From the NCBI GenBank assembly GCA_965205505.1, contig CBDBHB010000009.1, positions 2,816,001 to 2,880,000 on the forward strand: DNA of 64,000 nt. Reading direction: 5' to 3'. The first letter of the stretch is position 1. The number at the start of each line of letters is the position of its first letter. A program made the position numbers and the translations under genes. Below are positions 1,056 through 46,238 of the stretch, one piece after another. A model generated the notes under the pieces. It did no database searches and had not been told where the DNA came from. It saw only the letters and a list, made by a program, of their open reading frames with translations. The stretch is from Acidobacteriota bacterium. Lineage in GTDB: Bacteria; Acidobacteriota; UBA890; WLXD01.

Positions 1056-1147
1056 CTATCAGGCCGTGGTGGAAGTGTGGCGGGCCTGCGACAGGGTCTT
1101 GCGAGCTGAAGGCAAGGAGAAAGGAGGAGGCGACCACGGCCTGCTAG
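1056..1147. mobile_element. Truncated CTAG-bounded MITE-like element, terminal type 1
   Basis: CTAtCAGGCCGTGGTGGAAGTGTGG...ACCACGGCCTGCTAG; interior matches the reverse complement of about 13600-13645. Confidence 0.75.
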
Positions 1148-1184
1148 TCACTCACGCCACCTGGCGAATTGAACGACCCCTCGC

Positions 1185-2885
1185 TTGGAGCCGATGATGT
1201 CCATGAACTCGAATCGCTGTTTCGCGACGATGCTGGGCTCTCTGTTTCTTCTAGTGCCCGCAATCGCCACCGCAACCCCCCAATCGGTGACTCCGACGGC
1301 CGTGCTGTCGGCCGACATCGCACCCCAGCCGGTGTCGAACGAAGCGCTTGCGGCGACGCAGGGACCGGAGGAGGCAAAGGTTCTGGAGCTGTCGCTTCGC
1401 CAGGTTGTCGAGCTGGCGCTGCGCCACAATCTCCAGGTGCGCATCGCGTCACTCAACCCAGACCTGACGGAAGAGCAGATCCGTTTCGCACGGTCGAGAT
1501 TCGACCCCGTATTCGTGTTCAATCTGCCGCAGCAGTTCAACCGATCGACTCAGCCGACAGCCTCAGTGCTTGGCGGGGCCGACGTGCTCACGCAAGAATC
1601 AATCGTGGCTGGGTTCAGCGTGTCGGCGAACACCTCGTTCGGTCTCGGGTGGTCGGTCTCGGGTAACGCATCACGGCTGGTCACCAACAACGAATTTTCG
1701 ACCTTCAACCCGCAATACACCACGAGCATGACGCTGTCCGTGCGGCAGCCGCTGCTGCGCAACTTCGGCCGCACAGCGAACCGACAGCAGCTGCTCGTGG
1801 CACAGAACGACTTTTCGGTAAGTCGCCACCAATTCGGTCAGCAACTACAGCAACAGATCGCGCAGGTGATCATCGCGTACTGGAATCTGGTATCGGCGTA
1901 CCGTTTCGTCGACATCGCCGAGCAGAGCCTCGAGCTGGCGCTGGAGCAACTCGACCGCAACAACACGATGGTGCGCATCGGTACGCTGGCCGCGGTCGAC
2001 GTGATTCAGACGGAGCAACAAGCGGCAGACGCCCAGCTCACGTTGATCCAATCGCAGATCGCGCTGCAGAACCAACAGGATCAGGTGAAGTCTCTGCTCA
2101 ACCTCGACTCGGTGGTGGCCGAAGGGTGGACTGTAGAGATCGTTCCCACTGACGAGCCGGCCAGGAACGCACCCGAGATCGACATGGAACTAGCAGTTGC
2201 GGAGGCGCTGCAGAAGAGCCCGCTCATCCGGCTCGACCGGGTGAACGTCGAGAGCCGAAAAATCGACCTCGGGGCGGCGCGCAACGGTGTACTGCCGCAG
2301 CTCGACTTCGTCGCCAGCGGTACTCTTAGCGGGTTGGGTGGCGATCAGATCTTTCGCTCCGGCGGCATTTTCGGGAGCGGCGGCGTGGTTGAGGTTCAGG
2401 AGGGCGGACTGTCCAACTCGCTGAGGCAATTGCTATCGGGTGACTTTCGCAATTGGTCGCTCGGGATCCAGGTGTCGTTTGCGGTGCGCAACGACGCAGC
2501 GCGCGCTCAGCATGCTCAAGCGTCTATTCGTGAGATGCAGGCGATGACCCAGCTCCAGGACCGGCAGGTTCAGATCCGCCTGGCCGTTCAGCAGGCGGCC
2601 AGGAACGTGACCGGGGGCGTGCAGCAAGTGAATGCGGCGCAGAACGCGCTGGCCTTGGCGGAGCGCCAGTACGCGGCAGAGCTACGGCGCTTCGAAGCGG
2701 GAATCACCTCCACCTTCCAGGTGCTCAACTTCCAGCGCCAGCTCACGCTGGCACGGTCACGGCAATTGGTGTCGCTGATCGGCCTCAACTTGTCGCTAGC
2801 GAACCTGGAGTTCAATAAGGGAACGCTGCTCCAGCAATTCGGCATCGAGATCGAAGACGCCGGTACTGGCGGACCGATGATGTGA
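1185..2885 (+). CDS. TolC family outer membrane efflux protein
   Basis: Signal peptide, LSL..VV..AL.HN, two OEP-like repeats (AYWNL, R..AG..S). Confidence 0.85.
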   Translation: MEPMMSMNSNRCFATMLGSLFLLVPAIATATPQSVTPTAVLSADIAPQPVSNEALAATQGPEEAKVLELSLRQVVELALRHNLQVRIASLNPDLTEEQIRFARSRFDPVFVFNLPQQFNRSTQPTASVLGGADVLTQESIVAGFSVSANTSFGLGWSVSGNASRLVTNNEFSTFNPQYTTSMTLSVRQPLLRNFGRTANRQQLLVAQNDFSVSRHQFGQQLQQQIAQVIIAYWNLVSAYRFVDIAEQSLELALEQLDRNNTMVRIGTLAAVDVIQTEQQAADAQLTLIQSQIALQNQQDQVKSLLNLDSVVAEGWTVEIVPTDEPARNAPEIDMELAVAEALQKSPLIRLDRVNVESRKIDLGAARNGVLPQLDFVASGTLSGLGGDQIFRSGGIFGSGGVVEVQEGGLSNSLRQLLSGDFRNWSLGIQVSFAVRNDAARAQHAQASIREMQAMTQLQDRQVQIRLAVQQAARNVTGGVQQVNAAQNALALAERQYAAELRRFEAGITSTFQVLNFQRQLTLARSRQLVSLIGLNLSLANLEFNKGTLLQQFGIEIEDAGTGGPMM

Positions 2886-3007
2886 TCGCGCTCGGCACCC
2901 GTCCAGCAGGTTCCGTTGGCGCCGCCTGACCCGCCTGCCGATCAGTTGCCGCCCCGTTAGCGTTGCAAGAGCGGCAAGTCTGGGTGGCACGCGCAGAGGA
3001 GGCGGAT

Positions 3008-3382
3008 TCAGAACGGCAAGTCTCCCTCGTCGAGGCCGAAGTGGTGACCGATCTCGTGCAGCAGCGTCTCGCGCACGATCTGCGCGATCTCGCCGCGGTG
3101 ACGCGCCTCCCGTAGCGTAGGGCCACGGAAGATCACGATACGGTCGGGAAGGTCCCACCCACCGCTGTCGCGCACGCTCTGAGGCGTGCCTTGGTACAGA
3201 CCCAACAGGTCTTGGTCATCGTCGTCTGGATGGATCCCGACCCCGGCAAGCTCTTCCGCATCAGGCTCGTCCTCGATCACGATCGCGACGTTGTCGAGAC
3301 GGTTGGCCCACTCCGGTGGCAGGCTCGCCAGAGCCTCCTCGACAATGGCCTCGAATCTCGCCAATGAGATCTTCCTGGGCAT
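3008..3382 (-). CDS. Minimal zincin metallopeptidase (Zincin_1/DUF1025)
   Basis: LLGLYQG, PDRIVIFR, HEIGHHFG. Confidence 0.9.
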   Translation of the reverse strand: MPRKISLARFEAIVEEALASLPPEWANRLDNVAIVIEDEPDAEELAGVGIHPDDDDQDLLGLYQGTPQSVRDSGGWDLPDRIVIFRGPTLREARHRGEIAQIVRETLLHEIGHHFGLDEGDLPF

Positions 3383-3421
3383 CGGTTCACGCCTATTGGG
3401 TGCCGTCTATACTGCGCGGCG

Positions 3422-7778: not shown

Positions 7779-8153
7779 GTGTCGCACCATCGTTTCCGCA
7801 TATTCTCGCTAGACGAGGCGAATCGGGCGCTACGCCTAGTCAACCAGGTGACCGCGAGCACGCGTCGACGCATGCGCGAGCTGCGCCAGGAGCAGGAATC
7901 CGATCCGTCGGCGGCCGAGCAAGTCGACGCCGAAACTCGACTTGTGCTCGATGAATGGGCGCGCGTGATTCTCGAGATTGGCGGCCAGCCAAAGGGCATC
8001 TTCACGGTGGATTTCCGCAGCCCCGATCCGAATGTGTTGTGGTGCTGGGCACCCGACGAGACCGAGATATCGCACCGGCACTTTACCTGGGAGTCGTTCA
8101 AGGACCGGGTATCGATCGATGCGGCCGACGCCGGATGGCCGGCGCTGAACTAG
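7779..8153 (+). CDS. DUF2203 family protein
   Basis: RIFSLDEAN N-terminus, VDF, WCW..DE.EISH.H...E.F..R pattern. Confidence 0.75.
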   Translation: MSHHRFRIFSLDEANRALRLVNQVTASTRRRMRELRQEQESDPSAAEQVDAETRLVLDEWARVILEIGGQPKGIFTVDFRSPDPNVLWCWAPDETEISHRHFTWESFKDRVSIDAADAGWPALN

Positions 8154-8188
8154 TGCTGCGTACCACTATTTGTGGGGCGTAGCACTAG
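8150..8188. mobile_element. Collapsed MITE-like element, terminal type 2
   Basis: CTAGTGCTGCG...CCACTATTTGTGGGGCGTAGCACTAG, the same ends as 10556-10724. Confidence 0.75.
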
Positions 8189-10520: not shown

Positions 10521-10559
10521 CACCACGATAGGCAACGATCATCTGTTACAGGCCACTAG
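10521..10559. repeat. Terminal type 3 MITE end
   Basis: CACCACGATAgGCAACGATCATCTGTTACAGGCCACTAG, near-identical to 41284-41322. Confidence 0.8.
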
Positions 10560-10724
10560 TGCTGCGCCCCACAAATAGTGGTTACGCCTGTAGCGGCGGG
10601 ACGGGACGATCCCTTTGTCGCGGCTCCTCGACGATGTTCCAACATCGCCTCCGTCGCCGCTCCGCGGACTCGTCCCGTCGCGCTCGCTACAGGCGTACCC
10701 ACTATTTGTGGGGCGTAGCACTAG
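10556..10724. mobile_element. CTAG-bounded MITE-like element, terminal type 2, with one hairpin core
   Basis: 26-bp imperfect terminal inverted repeat including CTAG; core GGCGATG..CATCGTCGAGGA on the minus strand. Confidence 0.8.
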
Positions 10725-12073
10725 CGCCCTGCTAGACCTGCCAGGTAATCGCGCGTTTCTTTCCGGCACACCGAGGCCAGCCCGATCAGGCCGATGAGGT
10801 TCGGTACCGCCATCGCGGCGTTGAGCGCATCGGCGAGCTGCCAGACGAAGTCGACGCGTCCAATCGCTCCGACGAAAACCATTGCCGTGAACACCACCCG
10901 ATACGGGGTGATTAGCCGCGAGCCGAACAAGTACTCGATCGATCGCTCACCGTAGTACGACCAACCCAGGATCGTGGAGTAGGCGAAGAAGACCAACGCC
11001 AGCGGAACTACCACGCCGCCCGCGGCGCCGGGCAGGCCGGCGCTGAAGGCGTCGACCGACAAGGGGGCACCGTCGACGCCACTGCTCCATACCCCGGTCG
11101 AGATGATCACGAAGCCGGTCATCGAGCACACGACGATCGTGTCGATGAACGTCTGCGTCATCGACACCAGCGCCTGGGTTACCGGGTGCCGCGTTTGCGC
11201 TGCCGCCGCCGCGATCGCGGCAGAGCCCAGGCCGGACTCGTTCGAGAACACGCCGCGGCCGATGCCGTAGCGCATCGCCTGGGCTACGGTGGCGCCCAGG
11301 AAGCCGCCCGCCGCGGCTGTTGGCGAGAAGGCTTGGCTAACCACCAACGCGACGACGGAGGGTATTTGGTCCAAGCGCGTCACGATGACTACGAGCGCTG
11401 CACCGACATACAGCAGGATCATCCCCGGGACCAGAAACTGCGTGACGCGCGCGATGCCGCGAATGCCACCGATTATCACGGTCCCGGTGGCCACCGCGAT
11501 TAGCAGTCCGGTAGTCCAGACAGGCCAACCGAAGTAGCTTTCCATCGCCGTCGCGACGGAGTTGCTCTGCACCATGTTGCCGATGCCGAACGCCGCCAGA
11601 GCGGTAAGCAGCGCAAAGGCACTGCCCAGGAAGGGGCTCCCTAGGCCATCGCGGAGGTAGTACATGGGGCCGCCGCTCATCTGGCCGCGTGCGTCAGTGG
11701 TGCGGTACTTCACCGCCAGCAGGGCTTCGGCGTACTTCGTGGCCATGCCGAACAGTCCGGTCACCCACATCCAGAAGAGCGCCCCCGGACCGCCGGCGGC
11801 GATCGCCGTAGCCACACCGGCGATGTTCCCGGTGCCGACCGTGGCCGCGAGCGCCATCATCAACGCTTGGAAGTGTGAGATGTCGCCGTCCGCGTCGCCT
11901 TCCTCGCGACGCTTTACCAGGGCGAGGTAGAGTGAATGCCCGAGCAGGCGGAACTGAATCCCGCCGAGCACCACCGTCAAGTAGACCCCGGTCCCGACCA
12001 ACAGCAGCAGCATGGGAGGACCCCAGAGATAGCTGTTTATCAGGACGAGAAGGTCAGTCGCTTGCTCGGACAC
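10721..12073 (-). CDS. Sodium:alanine/glycine symporter (AGCS family)
   Basis: [37 protein letters not shown]; probable GTG start at 12073 (alternative 12136). Confidence 0.93.
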
Positions 12074-12266
12074 CGATGGGCCTCCCTCGCTCGCCACCGG
12101 CGGACGAAGTGTGTTGGATCGAGTCACGGCGGCCATTGCGCCGGCTCAAGGCGCCGCGATGATAACCTGCCCGGTCGATACGATAACCGGCCATGGCTGA
12201 TTCGGCTTGCCCGGAGCGGCGCCTCTCACTACCGTTTCCCGCGTCTCTGCTGACGAGGTCGGGCGA

Positions 12267-13400
12267 ATGTCGAGCATCCAAGGGGAGCTGCAGTCCTACG
12301 CGGTGCGATCAGAAGAATCGCGCGGGCGCTGTTTTCCCGAGCCCGAGCACCCGTACAGGGGGCCTTTCGAGCGCGACCGCGACCGCATCGTTCACTCGCG
12401 TGCCTTTCGGCGGCTCGAGTACAAGACCCAGGTCTTCCCCAACCATCACGGAGACCACTTCCGTACTCGGTTGACGCACACCATCGAAGTGGCGCATCTG
12501 GCACGAACGGTGGCACGGGTCTTGGGACTCAACACTGCACTCAGCGAGGCGATCGCGCTGGCACATGACCTCGGCCATCCGCCGTTCGGACACGTTGGCG
12601 AGAGCGTCCTTGACGAGATGATGCACGATACCGGAGGCTTCGAGCATAACCGCCACACGCTGCGCACGGTGGTGGAGATTGAGGAGAAGTACGCCGGATT
12701 CCGAGGGTTGAACCTGACGTACGAGGTGCGCGAGGGAATCGCCAAGCACTCGGCGCGCTATGACCGCTTCGTCGGCGAGGAGATGCGGGAGTTTCGACCG
12801 CACGAACGCGCGCCGCTCGAGGCGCAGATCATCGATCTAGTAGACGATCTCACGTACAACGTGCACGACATCGACGACGGCGTCGAGGCGCATGTGCTTT
12901 CGGTTGATGAGTTGGTCGCGGACGCCCCGCTGTTCGGACGTATCTATACAAAGCTGAGCATCGAGCTCGCTGGCGCCTCCCGACGCGAGCTGTTCAACGA
13001 GACCATTCGGCGGATGGTGGACAGGCTCGCCACCGACTTGATCGAGAGTAGTCGCGAGGCGATCGCGGCGAGCGGAGTACGCAACCTGGCCGAGATTCGC
13101 GCCCTGCCGGCGAATCTGGCGTGCCATTCCGAGGGGGTCAAAGCGGACATGGCGGTGCTGGGCGAGGTGCTCTCGCAACGTCTCTACCAAAGTCCGTTGG
13201 TGCACGAGCAGATGGAGAGCGCCCGCCTGACGATCGAGCGACTCTTCCACGCCTACCTGGACGATCCCGAACTGCTACCTGAGCGTCATCGGCTAAGGGC
13301 GGACCGCGTCGGCACGCGTATCGCCATCGGCGACTATGTTGCCGGCATGACGGATCGTTTTGTGATCCGTGAGCACGATCGGATTATGAAAGACCGCTAG
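12267..13400 (+). CDS. dgt: Deoxyguanosinetriphosphate triphosphohydrolase
   Basis: RDRDRIVHS.AFRRL..KTQVF, RTRLTH, HDLGHPPFGH.GE, DYVAGMTD. Confidence 0.93.
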   Translation: MSSIQGELQSYAVRSEESRGRCFPEPEHPYRGPFERDRDRIVHSRAFRRLEYKTQVFPNHHGDHFRTRLTHTIEVAHLARTVARVLGLNTALSEAIALAHDLGHPPFGHVGESVLDEMMHDTGGFEHNRHTLRTVVEIEEKYAGFRGLNLTYEVREGIAKHSARYDRFVGEEMREFRPHERAPLEAQIIDLVDDLTYNVHDIDDGVEAHVLSVDELVADAPLFGRIYTKLSIELAGASRRELFNETIRRMVDRLATDLIESSREAIAASGVRNLAEIRALPANLACHSEGVKADMAVLGEVLSQRLYQSPLVHEQMESARLTIERLFHAYLDDPELLPERHRLRADRVGTRIAIGDYVAGMTDRFVIREHDRIMKDR

Positions 13401-13676
13401 CAGGCCGTGGTGGAAGTGTGGTGGGTCTGGTTACGGCGAGTTGGGGCCAGATGCAAGGCGGCCTGACACAGGCGATGCCCTAGCCATCGTCGAGGAAGGC
13501 CAACGCCGCAAGTGGCCCCAAATCGCCGTAACCCTTCGGGCGACAGGGGGGTTGCGCGCGTATGCTGCGTCGTTCCTCGTCAACGATGGAGTAACCATCG
13601 CCTCCTCCTCTCTCCTTGCCTGCACTTCGCAAGACCCTGTCGCCAGACCCACCACACTTTCACCACGGCCTGCTAG
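13397..13676. mobile_element. Full-length CTAG-bounded MITE-like element, terminal type 1 (two inverted hairpin units)
   Basis: About 34-bp terminal inverted repeat CTAGCAGGCCGTGGTGGAAGTGTGGTGGGTCTGG; followed by a type 3 remnant at 13673-13696. Confidence 0.85.
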
Positions 13677-13692
13677 TGGCCTGGTACAGGCC

Positions 13693-13956
13693 CTAGGCGG
13701 CGCCGAAGGTCGTGTCGGCATCGTCGCCGTCGTCGACCTCCACGAGGTTGGCTGCCGGCACCGCGACAGCTTGACCCCACTTGTCGAAGAGCACTGCGTA
13801 AACCCGTTCGCTGCGTTTCGGGTGGAAGCCGGCATCGGCGAGTTCCTTGTCGCTGAGCTGCCGCTGCACTGTGCCGAGCCAATCCTTGCAAACCATGATT
13901 TTGTGACCGATCTCGTCGCGCAGCTCCCCTGGCGTACGAACAACCTTGACGCGCAT
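13693..13956 (-). CDS. Small hypothetical protein (87 aa), possibly an SH3-like beta fold
   Basis: Strong GGAGGAG Shine-Dalgarno before ATG 13956; protein-like composition. Confidence 0.65.
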   Translation of the reverse strand: MRVKVVRTPGELRDEIGHKIMVCKDWLGTVQRQLSDKELADAGFHPKRSERVYAVLFDKWGQAVAVPAANLVEVDDGDDADTTFGAA

Positions 13957-14260
13957 CTGACTCCTCCGCTCCCGACCATGGACGCCCCATCGAATCGGGC
14001 GTCTTGCCACCCCATTTCACCGCGTCACGCCTCGAAAAACGCGCGTCGTGCGTGACCTGGCGACAACGTGCAAACTGCTCGCAAGTGTAGCATTTCCAAG
14101 GCGTTTCTGACTTCCGGATCGTTTGCCGGGCACCTAGGCCGATGGTACGCTGAACGAGCCTGCCGGGTGCGCTCATCGCTCCTCGTCGCCGCCCGCCGCG
14201 TGTCCTCTTTCGGTTCGATGGGAGTAGCTTGTTTCCTCACTGCCCCGCTGGAGTAGGTCT

Positions 14261-18231: not shown

Positions 18232-18284
18232 CGCAGGTCGCTATTCCGTGCCTTCTGGTTACGAGACATTTCCACCACTGCCTG

Positions 18285-31575: not shown

Positions 31576-34071
31576 ATGCCTGAATCCGAGCCCTTCGACA
31601 CTCACCTGGACGCCGAGATTCAGCAGGAGCTCGGCCGCGCACGGGAAGCGGAGATCGAGTTCCCGGCGACATTACCGGTTTTGCCGCTGCGCGGGTCGGT
31701 GCTGTTTCCCGGCGTGGTCATGCCGGTGCTGGTCGGGCGCAAGGCCTCCCAGCAGCTGGTGGTCGAGACGATGGATGCCGATCGGCTGGTGGCTGTCGTA
31801 GCCTTGCGTGACGCCGAGATCGAAGAGCCTAACGCCGACGATCTGCATGAGATCGCCACGCTGGCGCGACTGGTGAAGGTTCTGCGTCTGCCCAACGGCA
31901 ACCTCAACGTGATCGTCCAAGGTATTCAAAGGCTGCGTCTCGACGCCGTCACGTCCACTGATCCCTACATTCACGCTACCTGGAACGACATCCCCGAGCC
32001 GACTGCGAACGCCAAGGTAGAGGTCGAGGCCAAGCGAGTCAGTGCGCTGCGCCTGTTGCAACAGCTCATCGAGCTGTCGGCCGACTTGCCGCCCGAGCTG
32101 GAAGGGCTGGCACGCACGGCCACGCGGCCCGGCGCTATGGTCGACATCATCGCAGCGCATGTTGGTACGGCGGTCGAAGACAGGCAGCGGGTGCTTGAGA
32201 CGTTGCCGCCAAACGAGCGGCTCACGGTGCTCCTGGGGCTGCTCGCGCAGCAAGTTCAGGTGCTCGAGCTGTCACAGAAGATCGAATCTGAAGTACAGGG
32301 GGAGATCGACCGCGGACAGCGCGAGATGTACCTGCGAGAACGCTTGCGGGCCATCAAGCGCGAGCTCGGCGAGGAAGAGGACGACGCCGAGATCGAGGCG
32401 CTTGGTCGGCGAATCAGCGAGGCCGCGATGCCCGACGACGTTCGGAAGATCGCAACCCAGGAGCTCGAGCGGCTTTCCCGGATGTCGCCTGCGGCAGCGG
32501 AGTATCACGTTCTGCGCACGTACATCGACTGGATCCTCGACATGCCATGGGGTGTCTATACCGAGGACAACCTCAACCTCAAGATCGCGGCAGAGCTTCT
32601 CGACAAGGACCACTACGATCTGGAGAAGGTAAAGAAGCGGATCATCGAGTACCTGGCGGTGCGCAAGCTCAAGCCGGACAAACGGGGCCCGATCCTGTGC
32701 TTCATTGGACCTCCAGGGGTAGGGAAGACGTCTTTGGGTCGCTCCATCGCCGCCGCCCTCGGACGAAAGTTCGTGCGTCTGTCGCTAGGCGGAGTGCACG
32801 ACGAGGCGGAGGTTCGGGGTCATCGTCGTACCTATGTGGGCGCCATGCCCGGCCGCATAGTCCAAAGCATCAAACGGGTCGGATCGATGAACCCGGTGTT
32901 CATGCTGGACGAGATCGACAAGATCGGCCAGGACTTCCGGGGCGACCCTTCTGCCGCCTTGCTCGAGGTGCTTGATCCGGAGCAAAACGACACGTTCTCG
33001 GACCACTATCTCGAAGTCGCGTTCGATCTCTCTCGCGTGCTGTTCATCGCTACGGGGAACACGCCCGAGGGTATCCCTGCCGTCTTGCGCGATCGCATGG
33101 AAGTTCTCGAGCTACCGGGCTACACCGCCGAGGAGAAGGTCGAGATCGCACAACGCTATCTAGTGCCACGACAGCTCGACGATCACGGGCTTACTGCCGA
33201 GCAACTCAGCTTCGCCAGCGACGCTATCGGTGCAATTGTCCGCGACTACACGGAGGAGGCTGGAGTGCGTGGGCTCGAACGCGAGATCGCGGCGATTTGC
33301 CGTGCCCACGCCAGGCTGGTGGCGGAGCGAATCGATGATCCCGATGCCGCCCCCGCGGAGGCACTCGATGTGACTGTCGCGCATCTGCACCGCTTCCTGG
33401 GCCCGATAAAGTTCTTCTCCGATCTGGCGGAGCGAACCGCTGCTCCGGGTGTTGCGGTCGGCCTCGCGTGGACGGTCACCGGAGGCGACATCCTGTTCAT
33501 CGAGGCGACGCGAATGAAGGGGAAAGGCGAGCTGCGCCTGACGGGTCAGCTCGGTGACGTGATGAAGGAATCTGCGCAGGCAGCGATGTCGTACCTGCGC
33601 GGTCACGCTGTGCAGCTGGGAATCGCAGATAGTGCGTTCAGGAACCATGACGTGCACGTCCATGTCCCGGCCGGTGCCACTCCGAAAGATGGTCCGTCTG
33701 CCGGGGTTGCGATGCTCGTAGCCTTGGCCTCGTTGTTTACGGGGCGGCGAGTCGCGAGCGATCTGGGCCTCACCGGCGAGCTGACGTTGCGTGGGTTGGC
33801 GCTGCCGGTGGGTGGCATCAAGAACAAAGTCTTGGCGGCACACCGAGCCGGGCTCAAGCGAGTCCTCATGCCTCGAAAGAACGAGAAGGATCTCGAAGAG
33901 ATTCCGGAGCAAGCGCGGCGGGGCTTGGAGTTTGTGTTCATCGACCGGGTCGAGGAAGCACTGGAGCATGCATTGACGTCGCCGCCGCCGGCGCCGCGAA
34001 AAGCGGCAATCAAACCAGCACCTCGACGCAAGAAGAAGGCACCTCGCCGCCGGCCGGCAGGTTTGGGCTAG
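31576..34071 (+). CDS. lon: ATP-dependent protease La
   Basis: LPVLPLR, GPPGVGKTS, RGHRRTYVGA, PKDGPSAG. Confidence 0.97.
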   Translation: MPESEPFDTHLDAEIQQELGRAREAEIEFPATLPVLPLRGSVLFPGVVMPVLVGRKASQQLVVETMDADRLVAVVALRDAEIEEPNADDLHEIATLARLVKVLRLPNGNLNVIVQGIQRLRLDAVTSTDPYIHATWNDIPEPTANAKVEVEAKRVSALRLLQQLIELSADLPPELEGLARTATRPGAMVDIIAAHVGTAVEDRQRVLETLPPNERLTVLLGLLAQQVQVLELSQKIESEVQGEIDRGQREMYLRERLRAIKRELGEEEDDAEIEALGRRISEAAMPDDVRKIATQELERLSRMSPAAAEYHVLRTYIDWILDMPWGVYTEDNLNLKIAAELLDKDHYDLEKVKKRIIEYLAVRKLKPDKRGPILCFIGPPGVGKTSLGRSIAAALGRKFVRLSLGGVHDEAEVRGHRRTYVGAMPGRIVQSIKRVGSMNPVFMLDEIDKIGQDFRGDPSAALLEVLDPEQNDTFSDHYLEVAFDLSRVLFIATGNTPEGIPAVLRDRMEVLELPGYTAEEKVEIAQRYLVPRQLDDHGLTAEQLSFASDAIGAIVRDYTEEAGVRGLEREIAAICRAHARLVAERIDDPDAAPAEALDVTVAHLHRFLGPIKFFSDLAERTAAPGVAVGLAWTVTGGDILFIEATRMKGKGELRLTGQLGDVMKESAQAAMSYLRGHAVQLGIADSAFRNHDVHVHVPAGATPKDGPSAGVAMLVALASLFTGRRVASDLGLTGELTLRGLALPVGGIKNKVLAAHRAGLKRVLMPRKNEKDLEEIPEQARRGLEFVFIDRVEEALEHALTSPPPAPRKAAIKPAPRRKKKAPRRRPAGLG

Positions 34072-34135
34072 CAGGCCGCCTTGCATCTGGCCCCAACTCG
34101 CCGTAACCAGACCCACCACACTTTCACTCATCTAG
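34068..34135. mobile_element. MITE-like fragment between the convergent lon and rarA stops
   Basis: 34072-34122 is the reverse complement of about 13414-13465; the CTAG at each end supplies a TAG stop. Confidence 0.8.
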
Positions 34136-35511
34136 TCGGCGAGACCGGCTGCGCTGCGCCGGCGGCGGGCTGTATCGAAGTCTCGAAGTCGCTTGGCTAT
34201 CTCTATCTCGGCGCCGCGCTTGCCAGCGACATAGAAGCGGCGGTCGCTGATCTCCGCAGGGAGGCAGTCCATCGCGGCGACTCCGTCATCGAGATCGTGC
34301 GCATAGACATAGCCTGCACCATAGCCCTCCTCCTTCATCAGCCGCGTCGAAGCGTTGCGTAGCTGCATCGGTACGGCGAGGTTGCCGCTCGCCTGAGTCT
34401 CATCTACCGCAGCGCTGTAGGCGGTTTGGATGGTATTGCTCTTGGGAGCTGCGGCTAGGTAGATGGCCACCTCGGCCAGTGCCAGGGCGCCCTCGGGCAT
34501 GCCGATGGCGTGCATGGTCTGCATGCCGGCCACGGCGAGCGGTAGCGCTCCGGGATCGGCCAGGCCGACGTCCTCGCTCGCCATGCGCACCAGCCGTCGC
34601 GCCACGTAGAGTGGTGCCTCACCTGCTTCGAGCATGCGCGCGAGCCAGTAAAGCGCCGCATCGGCGTCGCTGTTGCGGATGCTCTTCTGCAACGCCGAAA
34701 TCTGGTTGAAATGCTCCTCGCGATCGTAGCGGAGATGGGGGCGTTGGAGCGCCTCTTTGACATCGTCGTCGCCTACCGAGAGCTGTCGCCCGCCCCGCTG
34801 GCGAGCCAGGCTTACGGCGAGCTCCAGTGCTGACAGAGCGGCGCGGGCGTCACCGTCCGCGAGAGCAGCGATCTGACGCAGCAGCCGTTCGGGAAACTCG
34901 ATCGCCGAGGCTCCTAACCCGCGCGGCAGCGACGTATCGAGGGCACGTCGAAGCAGTAGCTCCAGGTGCTCCGGAGTCAGCGCCGCGAGGCGAACGACGC
35001 GGCAGCGCGACAACAACGGTGGAATGACTTCGAAGGACGGGTTCTCCGTGGTGGCGCCGATAAGAATAATCGAACCGTCCTCAACCCATGGCAGCAGCGC
35101 GTCCTGCTGACCCTTGTGGAAACGATGAATCTCGTCGATGAACATGACGGTGCGGCCGCCAGAATGCTGGCGGAGACGAGATGCGTGGTCGGCGACTTCG
35201 CGTACCTGCTTGACTCCCGAAGAGGTCGCGGACAGCGTCACCAGCTGGCTGCCGGTAGCAATGCCGACGATGCGCGCCAGCGTCGTCTTTCCCACCCCGG
35301 CCGGGCCCCACAGGATCAGCGACGTCGGATGCCCTGACGCTACTAGCTGGCTCAGAAGCCGGCCCTCACCGAGCAGATGTTCCTGACCGAGAACCTCCTC
35401 GATGGTGCGCGGACGCATGCGCTCGGCGAGCGGCGAGCTCGGATCGACCTCGGCGGTCGTCGCCGACCCGTCGGCGGGGGCAAACAGGTCTCCGGATGCG
35501 GCGTCTGCCAT
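34132..35511 (-). CDS. rarA: Replication-associated recombination protein A
   Basis: PLAERMRP, GPAGVGKTT, DEIHRF, GATTENPSF, SEDVGLADP, GYGAGY.YAHD. Confidence 0.95.
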   Translation of the reverse strand: MADAASGDLFAPADGSATTAEVDPSSPLAERMRPRTIEEVLGQEHLLGEGRLLSQLVASGHPTSLILWGPAGVGKTTLARIVGIATGSQLVTLSATSSGVKQVREVADHASRLRQHSGGRTVMFIDEIHRFHKGQQDALLPWVEDGSIILIGATTENPSFEVIPPLLSRCRVVRLAALTPEHLELLLRRALDTSLPRGLGASAIEFPERLLRQIAALADGDARAALSALELAVSLARQRGGRQLSVGDDDVKEALQRPHLRYDREEHFNQISALQKSIRNSDADAALYWLARMLEAGEAPLYVARRLVRMASEDVGLADPGALPLAVAGMQTMHAIGMPEGALALAEVAIYLAAAPKSNTIQTAYSAAVDETQASGNLAVPMQLRNASTRLMKEEGYGAGYVYAHDLDDGVAAMDCLPAEISDRRFYVAGKRGAEIEIAKRLRDFDTARRRRSAAGLAD

Positions 35512-35633
35512 ATCGAGGTTACCGGCGACTTGATCTAAGAGAAGTTGAACATGGCAACGGGGAGCGATGATGGGCAAGAGGTGGCGCAGCGCTCAGGTTA
35601 TCCTGAAACGGCCCGCCTGGGGCCGGAGGCGAG

Positions 35634-40781: not shown

Positions 40782-41322
40782 GTAACAGATGATCGTTGCA
40801 TATCGCAGATGGGATTTGCGGGTGAGATCAAGGCGCGGCGAGGATGTCGATGCTAGCAGGCCGTGATGGAAGTGTGGTGGGTCTGGCAAGTGGGACTCAC
40901 GGGCTAGGGCAAGGATCGACGACGAGGCGATGCTGGAGCCATCGTCGAGGAGAGAGACGCCGCCATCGCCCGTGACTCCCACTTGCCCTACGGGTTACGC
41001 CGCCAAGGGCGCGTCTCCGGCGTTGCCGCTCCTAGACGATGCGCACGGGCATCGCCGGCGACGCGGCGCCTTGGATCTGCGCCCTTGGCGGCGTAACCAG
41101 ACCCATCACACTTCCATCACGACCTGCTGGGGCATCGTCGACGAGGCGCAACGCCGATATCGCCCGCAACTGCCCATCTGTCCGCAGGATGGCGGCGAAA
41201 TCGGCCCGTCTGCGGCGTTGCTCCTCCTCCAAGATGGGCAAACATCGTCTCCTCGTCGCGCCTGGCATCCGGACCCATTTCGCCACCACGATACGCAACG
41301 ATCATCTGTTACAGGCCACTAG
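40782..41322. mobile_element. Type 3 MITE-like element carrying a nested type 1 element (40853-41130)
   Basis: Outer repeats GTAACAGATGATCGTTGC / GCAACGATCATCTGTTAC; inner repeats CTAGCAGGCCGTGATGGAAGTG / CACTTCCATCACGACCTGCTGG. Confidence 0.85.
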
Positions 41323-41879
41323 GAGCCGGCAATCGCGAGGTCGCGTTCAATCGCAGCGCGTCCGCGATCGGTGATTCGGTACTCGTAGGCGCGACCGCGG
41401 CGCCGGCGGTCAACGAGCTCTCGCGCCGCACGTAGCGCGTTACTCACGTTCGTGCGGTATACGGACCGCACGCGGCCTCGCTCCGCCAGGAAGCGCTCGA
41501 TCTCGCGCGGGGTCATCCATTCGATTCCCAGTTGCACGCTCGTTGCCTCCAATGCGACGAGCGCTTTTAGAAGCATCTTTCCAGGCGTCGCCAGAACCGA
41601 CGCGTAACGCGCCAGCCGCAACCGCGAGGAGTCGGACCCAGCGCGCCGTGGCACGGCCGTACCCGGCTCACTTGCTGACTTTCCAATGGCGCGGGGGAGG
41701 AGGGCCCGGACAATTTCGATCCGATACGCCTCGGGTACCCGGTGCTCCACGATGGCAATCAATGAGAGGGCGCGATCCACTTCCTCGGAAATGTCCGGGT
41801 CATCCCGACGCTCGGCCTGCGCGGACGTGCTCCTGGCGCAAGATGTCTGGCTCGGAGCCGGGTCGTGTGGCTTGCTCAA
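41319..41879 (-). CDS. Hypothetical protein with a C-terminal winged helix-turn-helix
   Basis: MTPREI...NVSNAL...LVDR...YEYRITDRG wing pattern; AGGA before TTG. Confidence 0.65.
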   Translation of the reverse strand: MSKPHDPAPSQTSCARSTSAQAERRDDPDISEEVDRALSLIAIVEHRVPEAYRIEIVRALLPRAIGKSASEPGTAVPRRAGSDSSRLRLARYASVLATPGKMLLKALVALEATSVQLGIEWMTPREIERFLAERGRVRSVYRTNVSNALRAARELVDRRRRGRAYEYRITDRGRAAIERDLAIAGS

Positions 41880-41973
41880 CGCGCCATCCTATCTCGTTTT
41901 CCCAGAATCGGTGGCTACACCCGGGCACCTGTCGACGAATATCGTCGTCATACACCTTGGCGTCAGGGGTCGC

Positions 41974-42143: not shown

Positions 42144-42172
42144 ACGAGACACAAGCGCGTATAATCCGCCGC

Positions 42173-42823
42173 ATGAACGTTCCGCAGGCGTTACTGCAGC
42201 GCTCGAGCCTCCGTTTCTGCAAGGCGTTCTTCGAGGTTACCGACAACGCGGCGACGCATGAATGCCTGCTCAGGCTGGGAGCGCAGGAGTTGTCGGAAGC
42301 GATAGGTGACGCCGCCACCGAGTGTTGGTATTGGTGGTACGGTGGGCGGGACGATGCCGATCGCCGCTACGACGCCTTCCTGCTCCGTCTGCGCCCCGCC
42401 CGACTTGTGCTGGAAGGAGCCACAGCGGCGTCGGTGGGTCGCGGTTGGCGCGTGCTGGATCAGCAATTGCGACCGCACGCCCGGGCGCGGGTCGCCGCGC
42501 GCGACGACTTGGCGCGCTTCGTTCCGGGCCGGCGACAGCACTCCGCAGACCGACCGGAAACGTGGAGCGCCGGCCACGAGGCTCGCGTGCTGGCCGAATT
42601 CTACGCCTCTTTCGCGGCGCGCTGGGCGCGGCAACCCCACTCGCGCCTTGGTGGGATGAGTCCGCTGGATGCCCTGCGGCATCCAGCGAAGCGGGCGTGC
42701 GTCGACGAACTATTGGCTCGCATGGAGCGCCTCGAAGAAGAGCGCCGGCAACGCGGCATGCAGAGTTTCGCAGTCGAGGATTTGCGACGTGCTGTCTTCG
42801 GCGTTGACGGAGACGCAGAGTGA
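42173..42823 (+). CDS. Hypothetical protein with a Xre/MbcA/ParS-like C-terminal motif
   Basis: W..QPH..LGGMSPLDAL.......VDELL..ME. Confidence 0.6.
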   Translation: MNVPQALLQRSSLRFCKAFFEVTDNAATHECLLRLGAQELSEAIGDAATECWYWWYGGRDDADRRYDAFLLRLRPARLVLEGATAASVGRGWRVLDQQLRPHARARVAARDDLARFVPGRRQHSADRPETWSAGHEARVLAEFYASFAARWARQPHSRLGGMSPLDALRHPAKRACVDELLARMERLEEERRQRGMQSFAVEDLRRAVFGVDGDAE

Positions 42824-44004
42824 GGATCTTCTGGGGCCCGCGTATGACGGCAAGCTTGACGCTCATCCTGTTCACAGCGACTGCTTTGGCAGTGGCGGCG
42901 CAAGCCCCGGAGACGCGCGGGCGTGCCCGCGACTTCGGGATTGCGCCAGGTGTTCTGGCTGCCGGGCCGCTGAACGCCATTACCGATGTGGCCGGCGTCC
43001 TCGTCGGCCACGTCACTCTCGTCGTACCGCCCACCACGAACACTGGGGTGACGGCGATTCTGCCGCACTCCGGTAACATATTCCGCGACAAGGTTCCCGC
43101 TGCGGTCTTCGTGGCCAATGGATTCGGGAAGCTGACCGGCATCAGCCAGATCCGCGAGCTCGGAACCATCGAGACGCCCATCCTGCTCACCGGTACGCTC
43201 AGTGTTCCGCGCGCCGCAGACGGGTTGATCTCGTACATGCTCGGCCTGCCGGGCAACGAAGATGTCCGCTCCATCAATCCGGTCGTAGGCGAGACCAACG
43301 ATGGTTACCTGAGCGACATCCGCGCCCGCCCGATCCGACCGGAGCATGTACGCGAGGCGATCGAGTCCGCCAGTTCCGGCGCCGTTGTGGAGGGCAACGT
43401 AGGAGCGGGCAGCGGGACGATCGCGTTCGGGTTCAAGGGTGGCATTGGCACCTCATCGCGGCGACTACCTGAGCGTCTGGGTGGCTGGACGGTAGGTGCC
43501 CTGGTGCAGACCAACTTCGGAGGCGTGCTCACCATCGCCGGAGCACCGGTCGGCGTGAAGCTCGGCCGCTACTACCTGCGCGATGTGCTGACGGGCTCGG
43601 CCGACGAGAGGGGCGGAGCCGACGGCTCCTGCATGATGGTAATCGCGACCGACGCGCCGGTGGATGCCGCCAATCTCGAGCGCCTGGCGCTGCGTGCTTT
43701 CATGGGCATGGCGCGCACCGGGGCGTCTGGATCGAACGGTAGCGGCGACTATGTGATCGTGTTCTCCACCCACTCGGGACTACGCTCCGGGCCGGATGGC
43801 GAGGCGCGCCCACGGGTCACCCCGCTGGCCGCCGAGCGACTATCGCCGCTGTTCATGGCTGCCATCGAGGCCACCGAGGAATCGATCTACAACAGCCTGT
43901 TTCAGGCGCGCACCACCGTCGGCGCTCGAGGCACCATAGAGGCGCTGCCTTTACAGAGGACGCTCGACATCCTCAGAGAGCACGGCGTCGTGGAACAGCG
44001 CTAG
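42820..44004 (+). CDS. DmpA/P1 family aminopeptidase
   Basis: NAITDV.GV.VGH, NGFGK, ETNDG.L, EGNVGAG, FKGGIG, DG|SC cleavage site, GSGD. Confidence 0.92.
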   Translation: MRIFWGPRMTASLTLILFTATALAVAAQAPETRGRARDFGIAPGVLAAGPLNAITDVAGVLVGHVTLVVPPTTNTGVTAILPHSGNIFRDKVPAAVFVANGFGKLTGISQIRELGTIETPILLTGTLSVPRAADGLISYMLGLPGNEDVRSINPVVGETNDGYLSDIRARPIRPEHVREAIESASSGAVVEGNVGAGSGTIAFGFKGGIGTSSRRLPERLGGWTVGALVQTNFGGVLTIAGAPVGVKLGRYYLRDVLTGSADERGGADGSCMMVIATDAPVDAANLERLALRAFMGMARTGASGSNGSGDYVIVFSTHSGLRSGPDGEARPRVTPLAAERLSPLFMAAIEATEESIYNSLFQARTTVGARGTIEALPLQRTLDILREHGVVEQR

Positions 44005-44078
44005 CAGACCACCGCCCGGCCACGCCTGCTAATGTAGATGGTCTGTTTTCGCGACCGCGTCGCAGCCGGGAGCAAGAT

Positions 44079-44675
44079 GTGTTGAACTCCAGTGTCCTCG
44101 TTCTGAACCGCCTTTGGCAGGTGGTCAACGTGGTCAACGCGCGACGTGCAATCACGCTGCTTTACGTGGGGCGAGGGAAGGTCGTCGCCGACGACTTCGC
44201 TACCTACACCTGGGAGAGTTGGACGGAGGCCTCCGTGCTGGCGCCCGAGGATCTGGCCAACTGCATTTCGGGACCGTCGTTGCGCGTGGTCGTGCCGCGC
44301 ATCATTCAGCTGCTCGAGTACGACCGGGTGCCTCGTCCCCGGGTGAAGTTCACGCGTGCCAACGTGTACCTGCGAGACCGCAACCAGTGTCAGTATTGCG
44401 GCCGCGTCACACGGCCCTCGCAACTGACGCTGGATCATATTCACCCACGGTCGCGCGGTGGCCGCACCACGTGGCGCAACATCGTCGTCTCGTGCTTCCG
44501 ATGCAACGCCCGGAAAGCCAACCGAAGCCCGGAGGAAGCCGGCATGGAGCTGCTCCGTGAGCCCCGGCAACCGGCCTGGCACCCGGCGACCTCTCTGCTG
44601 CCCGCGATCGATCCGTACGACGAGTGGATCCCGTTCCTGGACTGGGGGCACGGGGTTAAGGCCGCGGCGCCGTAG
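44079..44675 (+). CDS. HNH endonuclease (McrA-like)
   Basis: VLVLN, RD...CQYCG, TLDHIHPRSRGG...W.N.V.SC..CN..K. Confidence 0.92.
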   Translation: MLNSSVLVLNRLWQVVNVVNARRAITLLYVGRGKVVADDFATYTWESWTEASVLAPEDLANCISGPSLRVVVPRIIQLLEYDRVPRPRVKFTRANVYLRDRNQCQYCGRVTRPSQLTLDHIHPRSRGGRTTWRNIVVSCFRCNARKANRSPEEAGMELLREPRQPAWHPATSLLPAIDPYDEWIPFLDWGHGVKAAAP

Positions 44676-44827
44676 TAGGCGCCGCGGAGCGCCTCTGTCG
44701 GCGAAACGCTATGCTACGCTTGGCTCACACGCGTCGCCCTCCACCGCGCGTCCGCAGATTGCTACGAGCCAGTCGAGCGTACCTCGACCGCATCCAGCAA
44801 CAGGCACCCCACGAGCTTTTGCGAACG

Positions 44828-45874
44828 ATGAGCCAGCGACCCATCCGTGCACTCGGGTTGATGTCCGGAGGACTCGACTCGACGCTCGCCGCGAGCATTC
44901 TTCAGCGCCTCGGTGTTGAAGTACTCGGATTGCACTTCTCGACCGGCTTCTGCGTCGCCGATCGCCATCGCATCATGGGGAACGCGAACAACCGGGACAA
45001 GCCGTACCGCAACGATGCGCTCCATGCCGGCGGGCAACTTCAAATCCCCGTAGAGATCATCGATATCAAGGACGACTACCTTCAGCAGGTCGTGCTGAAT
45101 CCCAAGCATGGCTATGGCTCGGGAATGAACCCGTGCATCGATTGCCGCATCTTCATGCTCAAGCGTGCCAAGGTGATGCTGGAGGAGGGCGGCTACGACT
45201 TCATCTTCACCGGCGAGGTGCTCGGGCAGCGCCCGATGAGTCAGCGGCGGCCACCGATGCAGGCGATCGAGCAGGAGACGGAGCTCGAGGGATTGCTGCT
45301 ACGCCCATTGTCCGCGAAGCTATTGGCGCCGACGATTGCGGAGCAGAAGGGTTGGGTTTGTCGCGACGATCTGTATGCAATCTCAGGCCGCTCGCGGCAC
45401 GAGCAGATGCGATTGGCGGACGAGTTCGGCTTGGTCGACTACCCGCAGCCGGCCGGCGGGTGCTGCTTCCTACCCGACGAGAACTTCGCACGTAAGCTTC
45501 GTGACCTGCTTGCTGACCGTGGCAACGTAGTCGACCCGGACGACATGATGCTGCTCAAGGTCGGCCGCCATTTTCGTCTCGGCGATGGCGTCAAGATCAT
45601 TGTCGGACGCCACGAGGCGGAGAACGACTTTCTCGAACGGTTCCGTGTCGGGCGAGGAGCCGTGTGGGTCGAGGAGTTCAGCTCACCGCTAACCCTCATC
45701 GAAGGGGCTCCGTCGGCCGAGCAGCTCGAGCTCGCCTGCAAGATCACTGCGAGATATTGCGCTGGTCGTACCGAGAACGAGGTACCGGTGCACTGGCGCC
45801 TCGACGATCATGCGGGGCAGTTGGTGGTCGAGCCCGTACGCGAGGATGTTCTGCTCGACGAGATCCGGATCTAA
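44828..45874 (+). CDS. ThiI/MnmA-like PP-loop tRNA thiolation protein with an NFACT-R (DUF814)-like C-terminus
   Basis: SGGLDS, NPCIDCR, GEVLGQRPMSQ, PAGGCC, GRHFR...IVGR...EN. Confidence 0.8.
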   Translation: MSQRPIRALGLMSGGLDSTLAASILQRLGVEVLGLHFSTGFCVADRHRIMGNANNRDKPYRNDALHAGGQLQIPVEIIDIKDDYLQQVVLNPKHGYGSGMNPCIDCRIFMLKRAKVMLEEGGYDFIFTGEVLGQRPMSQRRPPMQAIEQETELEGLLLRPLSAKLLAPTIAEQKGWVCRDDLYAISGRSRHEQMRLADEFGLVDYPQPAGGCCFLPDENFARKLRDLLADRGNVVDPDDMMLLKVGRHFRLGDGVKIIVGRHEAENDFLERFRVGRGAVWVEEFSSPLTLIEGAPSAEQLELACKITARYCAGRTENEVPVHWRLDDHAGQLVVEPVREDVLLDEIRI

Positions 45875-45886
45875 GACGTTGGTGAG

Positions 45887-46210
45887 TTGAACATGTTGCG
45901 CCGCGCGCCGGACCGTCAGAAGATGCGGTTTCGCCGGCAGGTGCACGGTAGTGTCACCGACGATCAGCTGCGCTCGCTAATCGAAGTCGCCGAGGTTGCA
46001 GTAGACGCCCGAGGCACCTTCTGCCCGGAGCCCGTGATCCGCGTACAGGAGGCGGCTCGCGCGATGTGCCTGGGCGAGACGGCCATGCTGTTAGCCGACG
46101 ACGCCGGCGTCGAGTTGGACCTGCCCGCTTGGTGCATGAGCACCGGCAACGAGTACCTCGGCCTAGTGCGTGAAGACACCTTCCTGCGGGTCTTCATTCG
46201 TCGCGGCTAG
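45887..46210 (+). CDS. TusA/SirA family sulfur carrier (start uncertain)
   Basis: VDARG.FCPEP, DD......DLPAWC. Confidence 0.85.
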   Translation: MNMLRRAPDRQKMRFRRQVHGSVTDDQLRSLIEVAEVAVDARGTFCPEPVIRVQEAARAMCLGETAMLLADDAGVELDLPAWCMSTGNEYLGLVREDTFLRVFIRRG

Positions 46211-46238
46211 CAGGCCCGCCACACTTCCACCACGACCC
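46207..46238. repeat. Type 1 MITE remnant
   Basis: CTAGCAGGCCCGCCACACTTCCACCACGACC between convergent stops. Confidence 0.7.

Follow-up and report, generated by a model that had tools for sequence, protein, structure and literature searches.

CTAG-bounded repeats and their end types

The window, the whole 64,000-nt stretch of Acidobacteriota DNA analysed here, contains short repeats without genes that are bounded by CTAG and often meet the ends of ORFs: 12 of its 74 CTAGs overlap an ORF stop, among them 8 at which an element begins or ends. The full type-1 element at 13397..13676 (280 bp) lies between two converging ORFs, 12207..13400 (+) and 13673..14176 (-), whose stop codons fall within its two CTAGs, and carries one hairpin unit of the class beginning TGGTTAC (13428..13534 (+), 120 bits) and one of the class beginning TGGCGAC (13538..13645 (-), 75.9 bits). 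The second full type-1 element (40853..41130, 278 bp; units 40884-40988 (+) and 40992-41099 (-)) lies inside the apical-loop CTAG of a unit belonging to a type-3 element (40782..41322) that has lost its left tip. In this host element the first unit is thereby cut into 40806-40856 and 41131-41186; the second occupies 41187-41291 (-), and ORF 41319..41879 (-) stops in the right CTAG of the host. A full type-2 element of 169 bp (10556..10724) has a single unit (10588-10692 (-)), shares CTAG 10556-10559 with an adjoining type-3 end fragment (10521..10559 (-)), and ends on the right in a CTAG where ORF 10721..12136 (-) stops.

The remaining copies are reduced. They comprise a type-1 element of 92 bp with an internal deletion and no intact unit (1056..1147, left CTAT, right CTAG); a 39-bp type-2 mini copy running from CTAG to CTAG (8150..8188), whose left CTAG, at 8150, holds the stop of ORF 7779..8153; and a solo type-1 end (30310..30334 (-)) beside a decayed type-3 element (30335..30480) with one unit (30345-30445 (-)), whose CTAG 30477-30480 directly precedes the ATG of a DnaJ-like ORF at 30481. 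A 68-bp type-1 fragment (34068..34135) exactly fills the space from the lon stop (31576..34071) to that of ORF 34132..35577 (-), and the CTAG of a solo type-1 terminal hairpin (46207..46238 (-)) holds the stop of a TusA-like ORF (45887..46210). An unoccupied CTAG at 44001..44004 is the common stop of convergent ORFs 42820..44004 (+) and 44001..44651 (-). Beyond the range covered by the original prediction (1056..46238) lies a fourth CTAG-bounded palindrome of 110 bp (59336..59445) with 18-nt inverted ends and without the shared core, so the CTAG boundary is independent of that core.

The three terminal repeat types that had been proposed are real, with 5, 3 and 2 matches for types 1, 2 and 3 against 0 in 100 shuffles. 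Type-1 ends with at most 3 mismatches were located at 1056 (+), 13397 (+), 13652-13676 (-), 30310-30334 (-) and 40853 (+), while none occurred in 100 shuffles, and diverged copies lie at 41097-41130 (-), 46207-46238 and 34107-34127. The type-2 end matched at 8163-8188 (-), 10556 (+) and 10699-10724 (-), and the full type-3 end at 10532-10559 (-) and 41295-41322 (-), neither being found by chance. Among the type-3 sites named earlier, those at 10559 and 41322 are thus full ends, but the others are partial: the inner 24 nt only at 40782-40805, a stretch 62% alike at 30441-30479 (given as 30480), and at 13673-13696 a 24-bp mini hairpin, type-3-like and enclosed by two CTAGs, which abuts the type-1 element 13397..13676. 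Type-3 ends share a CTAG with type-1 or type-2 ends both in the window and in locus L030.

Full type-1 copies measure 278-281 bp and consist of an inverted-repeat stem of about 30 bp enclosing two inward-facing units of about 105 nt, one from each of the two classes and each facing inward from the nearer end; the head-to-head pair is as first described and runs plus then minus. In full copies of types 1 and 2, the inverted arms are 32-53 nt long with 83-94% complementarity. Folding z-scores of the two full type-1 copies in the window were -14.3 and -15.2, and the single-stranded full element is predicted to form a three-way junction. ORFs that cross elements resemble each other through the repeat DNA only, and a Pfam search of those scanned (e.g., L002:1877-2191 and L058:1995-2315) returned no match.

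A covarying hairpin unit behind different tips

At least three tip types carry homologous hairpin modules behind different tips of 20-30 nt. About 8 shared units had been claimed, and a covariance model recovered 7 intact sense copies (E<=3e-11) plus the one split by the nested element 40853-41130, while a strict core regex found 5. The alternative outer stems quoted with that claim are present and pair. Conservation of structure over sequence also held up, with compensatory pairs both in alignment A3 and in 16 non-redundant unit lineages. In A3, 93% of cells pair, compared with 75% after shuffling and 35-48% with the partners slid; 23 of 36 pairs are compensatory, and none of 500 shuffles reached any observed measure. 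In the set of 16 lineages, compensatory changes affect 24 of 35 predicted pairs, although such counts among related rows overstate the number of independent events.

The apical 7-bp helix, including a G.T pair, and several internal-loop motifs are nearly constant, whereas the lower stems covary; the purine-rich motifs AAGG and GAGGA are unpaired and nearly invariant. The model scored the sense strand far above the antisense strand (120 vs 48, 101 vs 38, 92 vs 33 and 64 vs 20 bits). Paired positions of 18 lineages held 530 Watson-Crick, 33 G.U and 4 A.C combinations, and in young subfamilies single changes at paired positions gave G.U 9 times and A.C 3 times. These subfamilies had accumulated 40 changes in 72 paired columns versus 53 in the 58 remaining columns, some of which are gap columns. 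From these patterns we infer that selection maintains the fold of the hairpin module, on one of its strands. The gap between sense and antisense scores, together with the excess of G.U over A.C, points indirectly to a putative protein that reads the module as a folded single-stranded nucleic acid, most likely the reason for this selection.

No Rfam 15 family matched the window at gathering score. At E<=1, elements in 5 loci were matched by two long-hairpin microRNA-precursor models only (36-40 bits against gathering scores of 105-137), and searches of plasmid and phage records gave no match to the elements.

Distribution, target site and mobility

The type-1 end was found in at least 69 loci of public genomes, nearly all of them Acidobacteriota MAGs, and 64 among the matches listed were true copies with similarity beyond the search pattern (L022, L040, L046, L055 and L059 lacked it). 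Hairpin units turned up in the window and in 25 loci belonging to 6 MAG assemblies. Similarity among 12 full copies of assembly CAXWPH01 ranges from 91.8 to 99.6% (median 95.7%), and the window copy is 92.9-97.5% alike to them; orthologous background DNA shows 91.4% identity. Most of 22 copies compared have CTAG, or a variant NTAG, at both ends, and their flanks outside CTAG are unrelated.

At 77 type-1 termini, the outermost base was C in 63, T in 9, A in 3 and G in 2, and the next three bases were T in 71, A in 73 and G in 74. Departures from the consensus thus number 14 at position 1 and 3 at position 4, a poor fit to a symmetric 4-bp duplication (binomial p=0.013), in a test based on 17 variant termini that takes the insertions to be independent. 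These flank statistics favour a TA duplication within a preferred C-TA-G, as in IS630. IS630 itself reportedly prefers TA within CTAG, as the title of a 1991 paper by Tenzen and Ohtsubo, cited in PMC2170065, has it.

Besides the CTAGs shared by type-3 and other ends, two observations support mobility. Locus L009 has 30 extra bases at the window's empty CTAG 44001, a mini type-1 hairpin; this single empty/filled pair is imperfect, as the insert is a 25-nt mini hairpin with one G beyond a clean duplication. In addition, joining the flanks of 40853-41130 by their coordinates gave a hairpin of 107 nt (-55.3 kcal/mol) resembling a unit, with the full set of motifs in their usual order and with the CTAG in its apical loop, into which the nested element had inserted. 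The proposal that the core is shuffled between mobile ends stands as far as homologous units occur behind different tips, but no shuffling event could be reconstructed; insertion of elements into each other's CTAGs offers a route to chimeras. Many short derivatives carry hairpin-associated deletions.

That the window lacks a transposase was borne out, since none of its 52 ORFs has a transposase, integrase or HUH domain. The same domains were absent from 205 ORFs of the loci at E<=1e-12 and also at E<=1e-6, thresholds at which many of these ORFs have no Pfam match at all. No cognate autonomous IS with matching ends turned up in the window or at most 2 kb away from any of 68 loci, nor did a RAYT or other Y1 gene in the approximately 300 kb examined, and no proteins recur among the loci except ordinary paralogues.

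Mobilisation, rival readings and significance

The evidence supports multi-copy, CTAG-bounded, probably mobile MITE-like elements without genes in uncultured soil-type Acidobacteriota, and they probably form a new and unusually structured MITE family. We assign a probability of about 0.65 to the reading that these repeats are non-autonomous DNA transposons that enter TA within CTAG and are moved in trans. The transposase would be encoded elsewhere in the genome. Element ends would begin right after the TA inside CTAG, and insertion into TA, usually within CTAG, would duplicate TA as IS630/Tc1-mariner elements do, to judge from the flanks; such a duplication would rebuild the old CTAG on both sides. 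CTAG reads TAG on both strands, so an insertion at a stop CTAG would spare one or two convergent genes and the copy would survive. With each copy further CTAGs would arrive, both in its ends and, in many cases, in a hairpin loop, and copies arriving later would insert next to or within older ones and produce nested and chimeric elements, while hairpin-mediated deletions would generate the many short derivatives. The protein presumed to read the module may be the enzyme that mobilises the elements or may come from the host, with a role either in transposition or on read-through transcripts. Against the MITE reading stand, besides the failure to find an autonomous element in the ORFs scanned and the imperfect empty site, two further points: recognition by the tips would call for one cognate transposase for each of three or four unrelated tips, and palindrome stems may likewise persist through template-switch repair.

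Several known systems resemble the family in part. RUP of Streptococcus pneumoniae is likewise small and non-coding, with inverted ends and TA insertion, and an IS630-family transposase, with IS630-Spn1 as the proposed source, presumably mobilises it in trans; RUP is 107 bp long with 9-bp inverted ends, and the account in PMC2229807, where it bears on RUP, reports no internal structure or function motif. The present family differs in its length of 280 bp, its two covarying hairpin modules, its several tip types and the lack of any matching IS found. Bcr1 of the Bacillus cereus group is mobile too, and compensatory base changes preserve its secondary structure, but this repeat is about 155 bp long and flanked by 5-bp direct repeats (PMC3184786, in part), belongs to another phylum, and has no CTAG boundary, two-module head-to-head layout or alternative tips. 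Correia/NEMIS elements of Neisseria are MITEs with 24-bp inverted ends, TA at the termini, size variants differing by an internal segment and long RNA hairpins (PMC2229807, in part); they differ in having an IHF site instead of a covarying hairpin module, and the collections searched held no matches that would relate them to the present elements by sequence.

The best-surviving alternative, which we still consider unlikely, is that these are REP/REPIN-like elements whose hairpin is read by an ssDNA-specific HUH tyrosine transposase (RAYT, TIRYT or class-3 Y1) that cuts at CTAG, the variable tips mattering little. One core-reading enzyme would account for three tip types sharing a core, and the covarying fold, bulge motifs, G.T pair and strand asymmetry are typical of ssDNA hairpin sites. 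According to the relevant part of PMC3733652, palindromes of the REP/BIME/REPIN class (RAYT/TIRYT) are intergenic and recognised by structure on single strands; they are mostly head-to-head, as are the unit pairs here, and their dimers are sometimes embedded in longer palindromes. The same part describes TIR-flanked tyrosine transposases as a well-defined group in Acidobacteria, where class-3 Y1 proteins flanked by atypical structures also occur (PMC6006769, in part). However, the feet described in those parts of the two sources are GTAG, CGTC or CnGA rather than CTAG, and REPs are 20-40 bp palindromes with a GTAG or CGTC tag as described in PMC3733652. REPs are not known to be bounded by long inverted repeats with a TA or CTAG duplication. 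Here, a unit measures about 105 nt, the elements end in long inverted repeats that are nearly perfect, the flanks favour TA duplication, which is not a product of HUH insertion, the fourth CTAG-bounded element lacks the core, and the approximately 300 kb examined contained no Y1 gene. Assignment to REP/REPIN palindromes (20-40 bp, unpaired GTAG/CGTC) was rejected on unit length and the CTAG-flanked inverted repeats, and assignment to IS200/IS605-derived PATEs, which would lack terminal inverted repeats and a duplication and have unlike left and right hairpins, on the long inverted ends, which are nearly perfect, and on a boundary that is identical left and right.

It is similarly doubtful, in our judgement, that an enzyme recognises the hairpin module and flanking CTAG instead of the terminal repeat, in a structure-guided, single-strand-based mobilisation; the enzyme may be of HUH type or another nuclease that cuts CTAG beside a folded hairpin. 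Such mobilisation would explain one covarying core under unrelated tips as well as the hits on hairpin-loop CTAGs and, if true, could move any cargo bounded by hairpin and CTAG.

We think it improbable that the module acts chiefly at the level of the host, as an RNA element co-transcribed with the upstream gene that stabilises a 3' end, provides a processing site or binds a protein, the transposon being only its vehicle. Units lie directly after stop codons, the inward-facing layout presents a sense unit first to transcripts from either side, G.U exceeds A.C at paired positions, AAGG and GAGGA stay unpaired and nearly invariant, and MITEs with RNA-level compensatory changes are known, such as bcr1 (PMC3184786, in part). 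Yet survival of harmless insertions at CTAG stops explains gene-end placement equally well, region 13300-13800 has no promoter-like or intrinsic-terminator-like site, and the window contains no Rfam family at gathering score, the microRNA-precursor matches falling far below it.

Template-switch repair of palindromes yields apparent compensatory changes without selection, and the elements are nested palindromes with many hairpin-associated deletion derivatives; that the structure is unselected, intrastrand template switching correcting the palindromes and inverted duplication of diverged arms founding subfamilies, is nevertheless very improbable, because bulges, the G.T pair and differing 5'/3' internal-loop motifs are kept asymmetric in 16-24 lineages, sense and antisense scores lie 40-70 bits apart, and young subfamilies vary less in their paired columns than in the unpaired remainder.

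The usual view of MITEs is of decaying shells that their ends define. In the elements described here it is the internal hairpin, not the tips, that is most conserved, with compensatory changes maintaining it in at least 16 lineages and no fewer than 6 MAG species. The relation of CTAG to stop codons means that a transposon can occupy the gap between convergent genes without harm to either gene. Such repeats break Acidobacteriota metagenome assemblies; to spot them, one could use a covariance model built on the unit. The family is a natural test case for the role of folded ssDNA or RNA in transposition or host gene expression.

Terminal types and architecture of the elements

The original prediction described a structured, CTAG-bounded repeat family with three terminal types, and this family is real. 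All three types lie at or beside their predicted positions in the window: with up to three mismatches allowed, the type-1, type-2 and type-3 ends gave five, three and two matches, respectively, and each gave none in 100 shuffles. Decayed type-1 pieces were located at 34107-34127, 41097-41130 and 46207-46238. The predicted type-3 sites stood in part, as two are full matches and those at 13673-13696, 30441-30479 and 40782-40805 are partial.

Two copies in the window, at 13397-13676 and 40853-41130, are full type-1 elements. As a single strand, each is predicted to fold into a three-way junction consisting of a terminal stem of about 30 bp and two long hairpins, with energies of -180 and -194 kcal/mol and z-scores of -14.3 and -15.2 against shuffles, respectively. 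Every full copy carries a left unit (the conserved hairpin of about 105 nt) on the + strand and a right unit on the - strand, so that each unit points inward from the nearer end. The two units within one copy belong to different classes, one starting with TGGTTAC or a close variant and the other with TGGCGA or TGGCAAG. One unit is present in the type-2 copy at 10556-10724 and two in the type-3 copy at 40782-41322, whose first unit is interrupted. Unit sequence is homologous in types 1-3 behind tips of 20-30 nt that differ between them, and none of the elements encodes a protein. Shortened forms (25, 67 and about 170 bp) also occur. Since their internal breakpoints differ and fall inside units or ends, these forms are deletion derivatives, and modular assembly is ruled out on the same ground.

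Covariation and strandedness of the hairpin unit

A strict core pattern occurred five times in the window, and a covariance model built from related copies recovered seven intact units (E ≤ 3e-11). An eighth was cut in two by another element, in agreement with the predicted number of about eight. Among the loci listed from a scan of public genomes, the model detected at least 50 sense units in at least 25 loci and at least six assemblies, in addition to the window, and the detected units fall into 18 lineages at less than 88% identity. At 12106-12158, at the 5' end of an alanine symporter ORF in a divergent intergenic region, there is a fragment with 74% complementarity to a stretch of the 41062-41114 unit. 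Weak unit-model matches on both strands (19.9 and 15.7 bits) were also given by a GC-rich hairpin at 57591-57650, between convergent ORFs 57033..57599 and 57672..58919, which is probably unrelated to the units.

The unit keeps its fold while its stem sequence changes, as originally proposed. In an alignment of 24 units, 23 of 36 predicted pairs showed compensatory change and 93% of cells paired, compared with 75% when partners were shuffled and 35-48% when they were slid by 1-3 columns; none of 500 shuffles attained any observed measure. Compensatory change was likewise found at 24 of 35 pairs in 16 non-redundant lineages that included type-2 and type-3 units, although such counts overstate the number of independent events because the alignment rows are related to one another. 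The apical 7-bp helix was invariant in the 24-unit alignment, with a G.T pair in all 24 rows, and the internal-loop motifs AAGG, GAC, GAGGA and AACGCC were invariant or nearly so. The apical loop, of 6-8 nt, is free in sequence.

Unit model scores were far higher for sense than for antisense (120 vs 48, 101 vs 38, 92 vs 33 and 64 vs 20 bits). Paired positions across the 18 lineages comprised 530 Watson-Crick, 33 G.U and 4 A.C combinations; single stem changes in two young subfamilies gave nine G.U and three A.C, and paired columns in these subfamilies had changed less than other columns. Because of the sense scores, the excess of G.U over A.C and the slower change of paired columns, the data speak for folding that is important on one strand, be it of RNA or of single-stranded DNA. 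A protein might plausibly recognise the folded module. The Rfam search proposed with the original prediction returned no family match in Rfam 15.

Target site, stop codons and movement

Flanks beyond the CTAG were unrelated among 22 copies. In 77 type-1 termini, counted from the outermost base, position 1 was C in 63, T in 9, A in 3 and G in 2, and the consensus bases T, A and G stood in 71, 73 and 74 termini at positions 2, 3 and 4, respectively. Position 1 departed from consensus 14 times and position 4 three times (p = 0.013). On the simplest reading of these termini, the element proper would begin at the G, TA would be the duplicated target, and the C before and G after it would reflect target preference, because position 1 varies far more than position 4. 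An IS5-like duplication of all four bases of CTAG is disfavoured, since variants would then be expected equally at both positions. Cytosine deamination of methylated CTAG would account for TTAG variants, but an equal number of CTAA is expected, and nine TTAG were found against no CTAA.

The window contains 74 CTAGs, with 97 expected from a Markov model and 212 from base composition alone. Twelve of them overlap the stop codon of one of the 52 window ORFs, and eight of these twelve are element boundaries. The 52 stop codons comprise 30 TGA, 19 TAG and 3 TAA; C precedes 13 of the 19 TAG stops, part of this excess coming from element boundaries. At 13397-13676 and 34068-34135, the element exactly spans the gap between the stops of two convergent ORFs. 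If insertion restores a CTAG at each end, the stops of both flanking genes would be kept, and copies at stop codons would persist because both stops are spared. No intrinsic terminator or promoter was found in 13300-13800, which spans the type-1 element at 13397-13676.

Three other sites were noted. A 25-nt stretch at 18264-18288, 76% like the type-1 right end and terminating in CTAA, is positioned exactly where the glutamine synthetase ORF 18285..19763(-) stops; it may be what is left of a copy inserted at a site other than CTAG. The 28 bases following the CTAG at 44001 (to 44032) resemble a type-1 tip at their start and finish with CCTGCTAA; to judge by this likeness, an ancient, degraded copy may here have come to encode the C-terminus of ORF 44001..44651. 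At 59336-59445 lies a fourth palindromic element with CTAG boundaries (110 bp, 18-nt inverted ends), which either overlaps the predicted start of an S49 peptidase ORF or ends immediately upstream of it. It lacks the shared core, indicating that CTAG targeting does not depend on the core.

The direct evidence for movement is sparse but coherent. At 44001, one CTAG still serves as the stop for two convergent ORFs, and the orthologous site in locus L009 has 30 extra bases, in which a 25-nt mini type-1 hairpin is accompanied by another CTAG and an additional G. The apical loop of a type-3 unit houses the type-1 copy 40853-41130, and when this copy was removed in silico, the flanks folded into a 107-nt hairpin that has every unit motif in its proper order and a CTAG in its loop. 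In three places (10556, 13673 and locus L030), a single CTAG is common to ends of different types. Among the listed loci, only L014/L051 and L021/L044 share flanks, and neither pair holds an empty site. In the former, from two MAG species (L014:7-787 and L051:2227-3032), a type-1 copy sits at the same place next to homologous flanks that are 73.6% identical, reflecting either an ancient insertion common to both species or the recurrent use of a single target.

Host range, mobilisation and related systems

Representative genomes were scanned once with a degenerate 19-nt type-1 pattern, which gave at least 69 loci. Among the matches listed, likeness extended beyond the pattern in 64 of 69 loci; the other five (L022, L040, L046, L055 and L059) showed none and look like chance matches. 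The true matches listed came nearly all from MAGs labelled Acidobacteriota or Acidobacteria. Window 42006-45996 has its orthologue in locus L009 of assembly CAXWPH01 (91.4% identity), so the source of the window is closely related to that MAG. Among the matches listed, twelve full CAXWPH01 copies were 91.8-99.6% alike (median 95.7%), and the window copy was 92.9-97.5% alike to them, closer than the orthologous background DNA. Matches in L014, L025, L029, L032, L036 and L041 lay within about 120 nt of contig position 1; as several MAG contigs start inside an element, these repeats appear to break short-read assemblies.

As predicted, no transposase was found in the window: its 52 ORFs are ordinary chromosomal genes, including clpB, dnaJ-like, lon, parAB, glnA and uvrD-like genes. 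A Pfam scan of all 205 locus ORFs of at least 100 aa, with L009 and the duplicate L065 omitted (182 at E ≤ 1e-12, 23 at E ≤ 1e-6), detected no domain of a transposase, an integrase or an HUH enzyme; since many ORFs stayed without any match at such thresholds, a divergent enzyme may have escaped detection. When 1797 ORF translations from the loci and the window were compared all against all, no recurrent gene near the ends emerged, the matches being read-throughs of elements and ordinary paralogues (MacB/FtsX, histidine kinases, ABC, NHL). In L016, two inverted type-1 ends 1858 bp apart resemble a full-length IS, but one is part of a 150-bp fragment and the other of a distinct full copy at 3605-3883, and the ORF between them had no Pfam match.

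Mobilisation by an IS630-like transposase is inferred as the most likely mechanism. A preference of IS630 for TA in CTAG is reported in a title cited in PMC2170065, which also describes TA duplication in the IS630 family, and this matches the target pattern inferred for type-1 elements. RUP of pneumococcus is a proposed MITE moved in trans by an IS630-type enzyme (PMC2229807), and the present family behaves likewise. It is unlikely that the module and CTAG, rather than the tips, form the recognition signal of a single-strand-specific enzyme. TIR-flanked tyrosine transposases (PMC3733652) and class-3 Y1 proteins (PMC6006769) are reported from Acidobacteria, and the head-to-head palindromic units recall REP dimers, which sometimes lie inside longer palindromes (PMC3733652). 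In contrast to the present elements, REP-type repeats are described as 20-40 bp long with feet GTAG, CGTC or CnGA (PMC3733652, PMC6006769). For a fold kept by compensatory changes, as in these units, the mobile repeat bcr1 is a precedent (PMC3184786).

In plasmid and phage collections, neither the type-1 nor the type-2/3 elements nor the nested locus had a match, and searches of the literature on Acidobacteria MITEs, bacterial CTAG-target MITEs and Acidobacteria RAYT/REPIN returned no description of the family. A large MITE census exists (PMC11602168), and its supplementary lists may already catalogue the family without describing it. We regard the family as a new variant of bacterial MITEs with an unusual degree of structure, defined by its several tip types, by a single conserved and covarying hairpin module that occurs once or twice, and by probable targeting of TA within CTAG.
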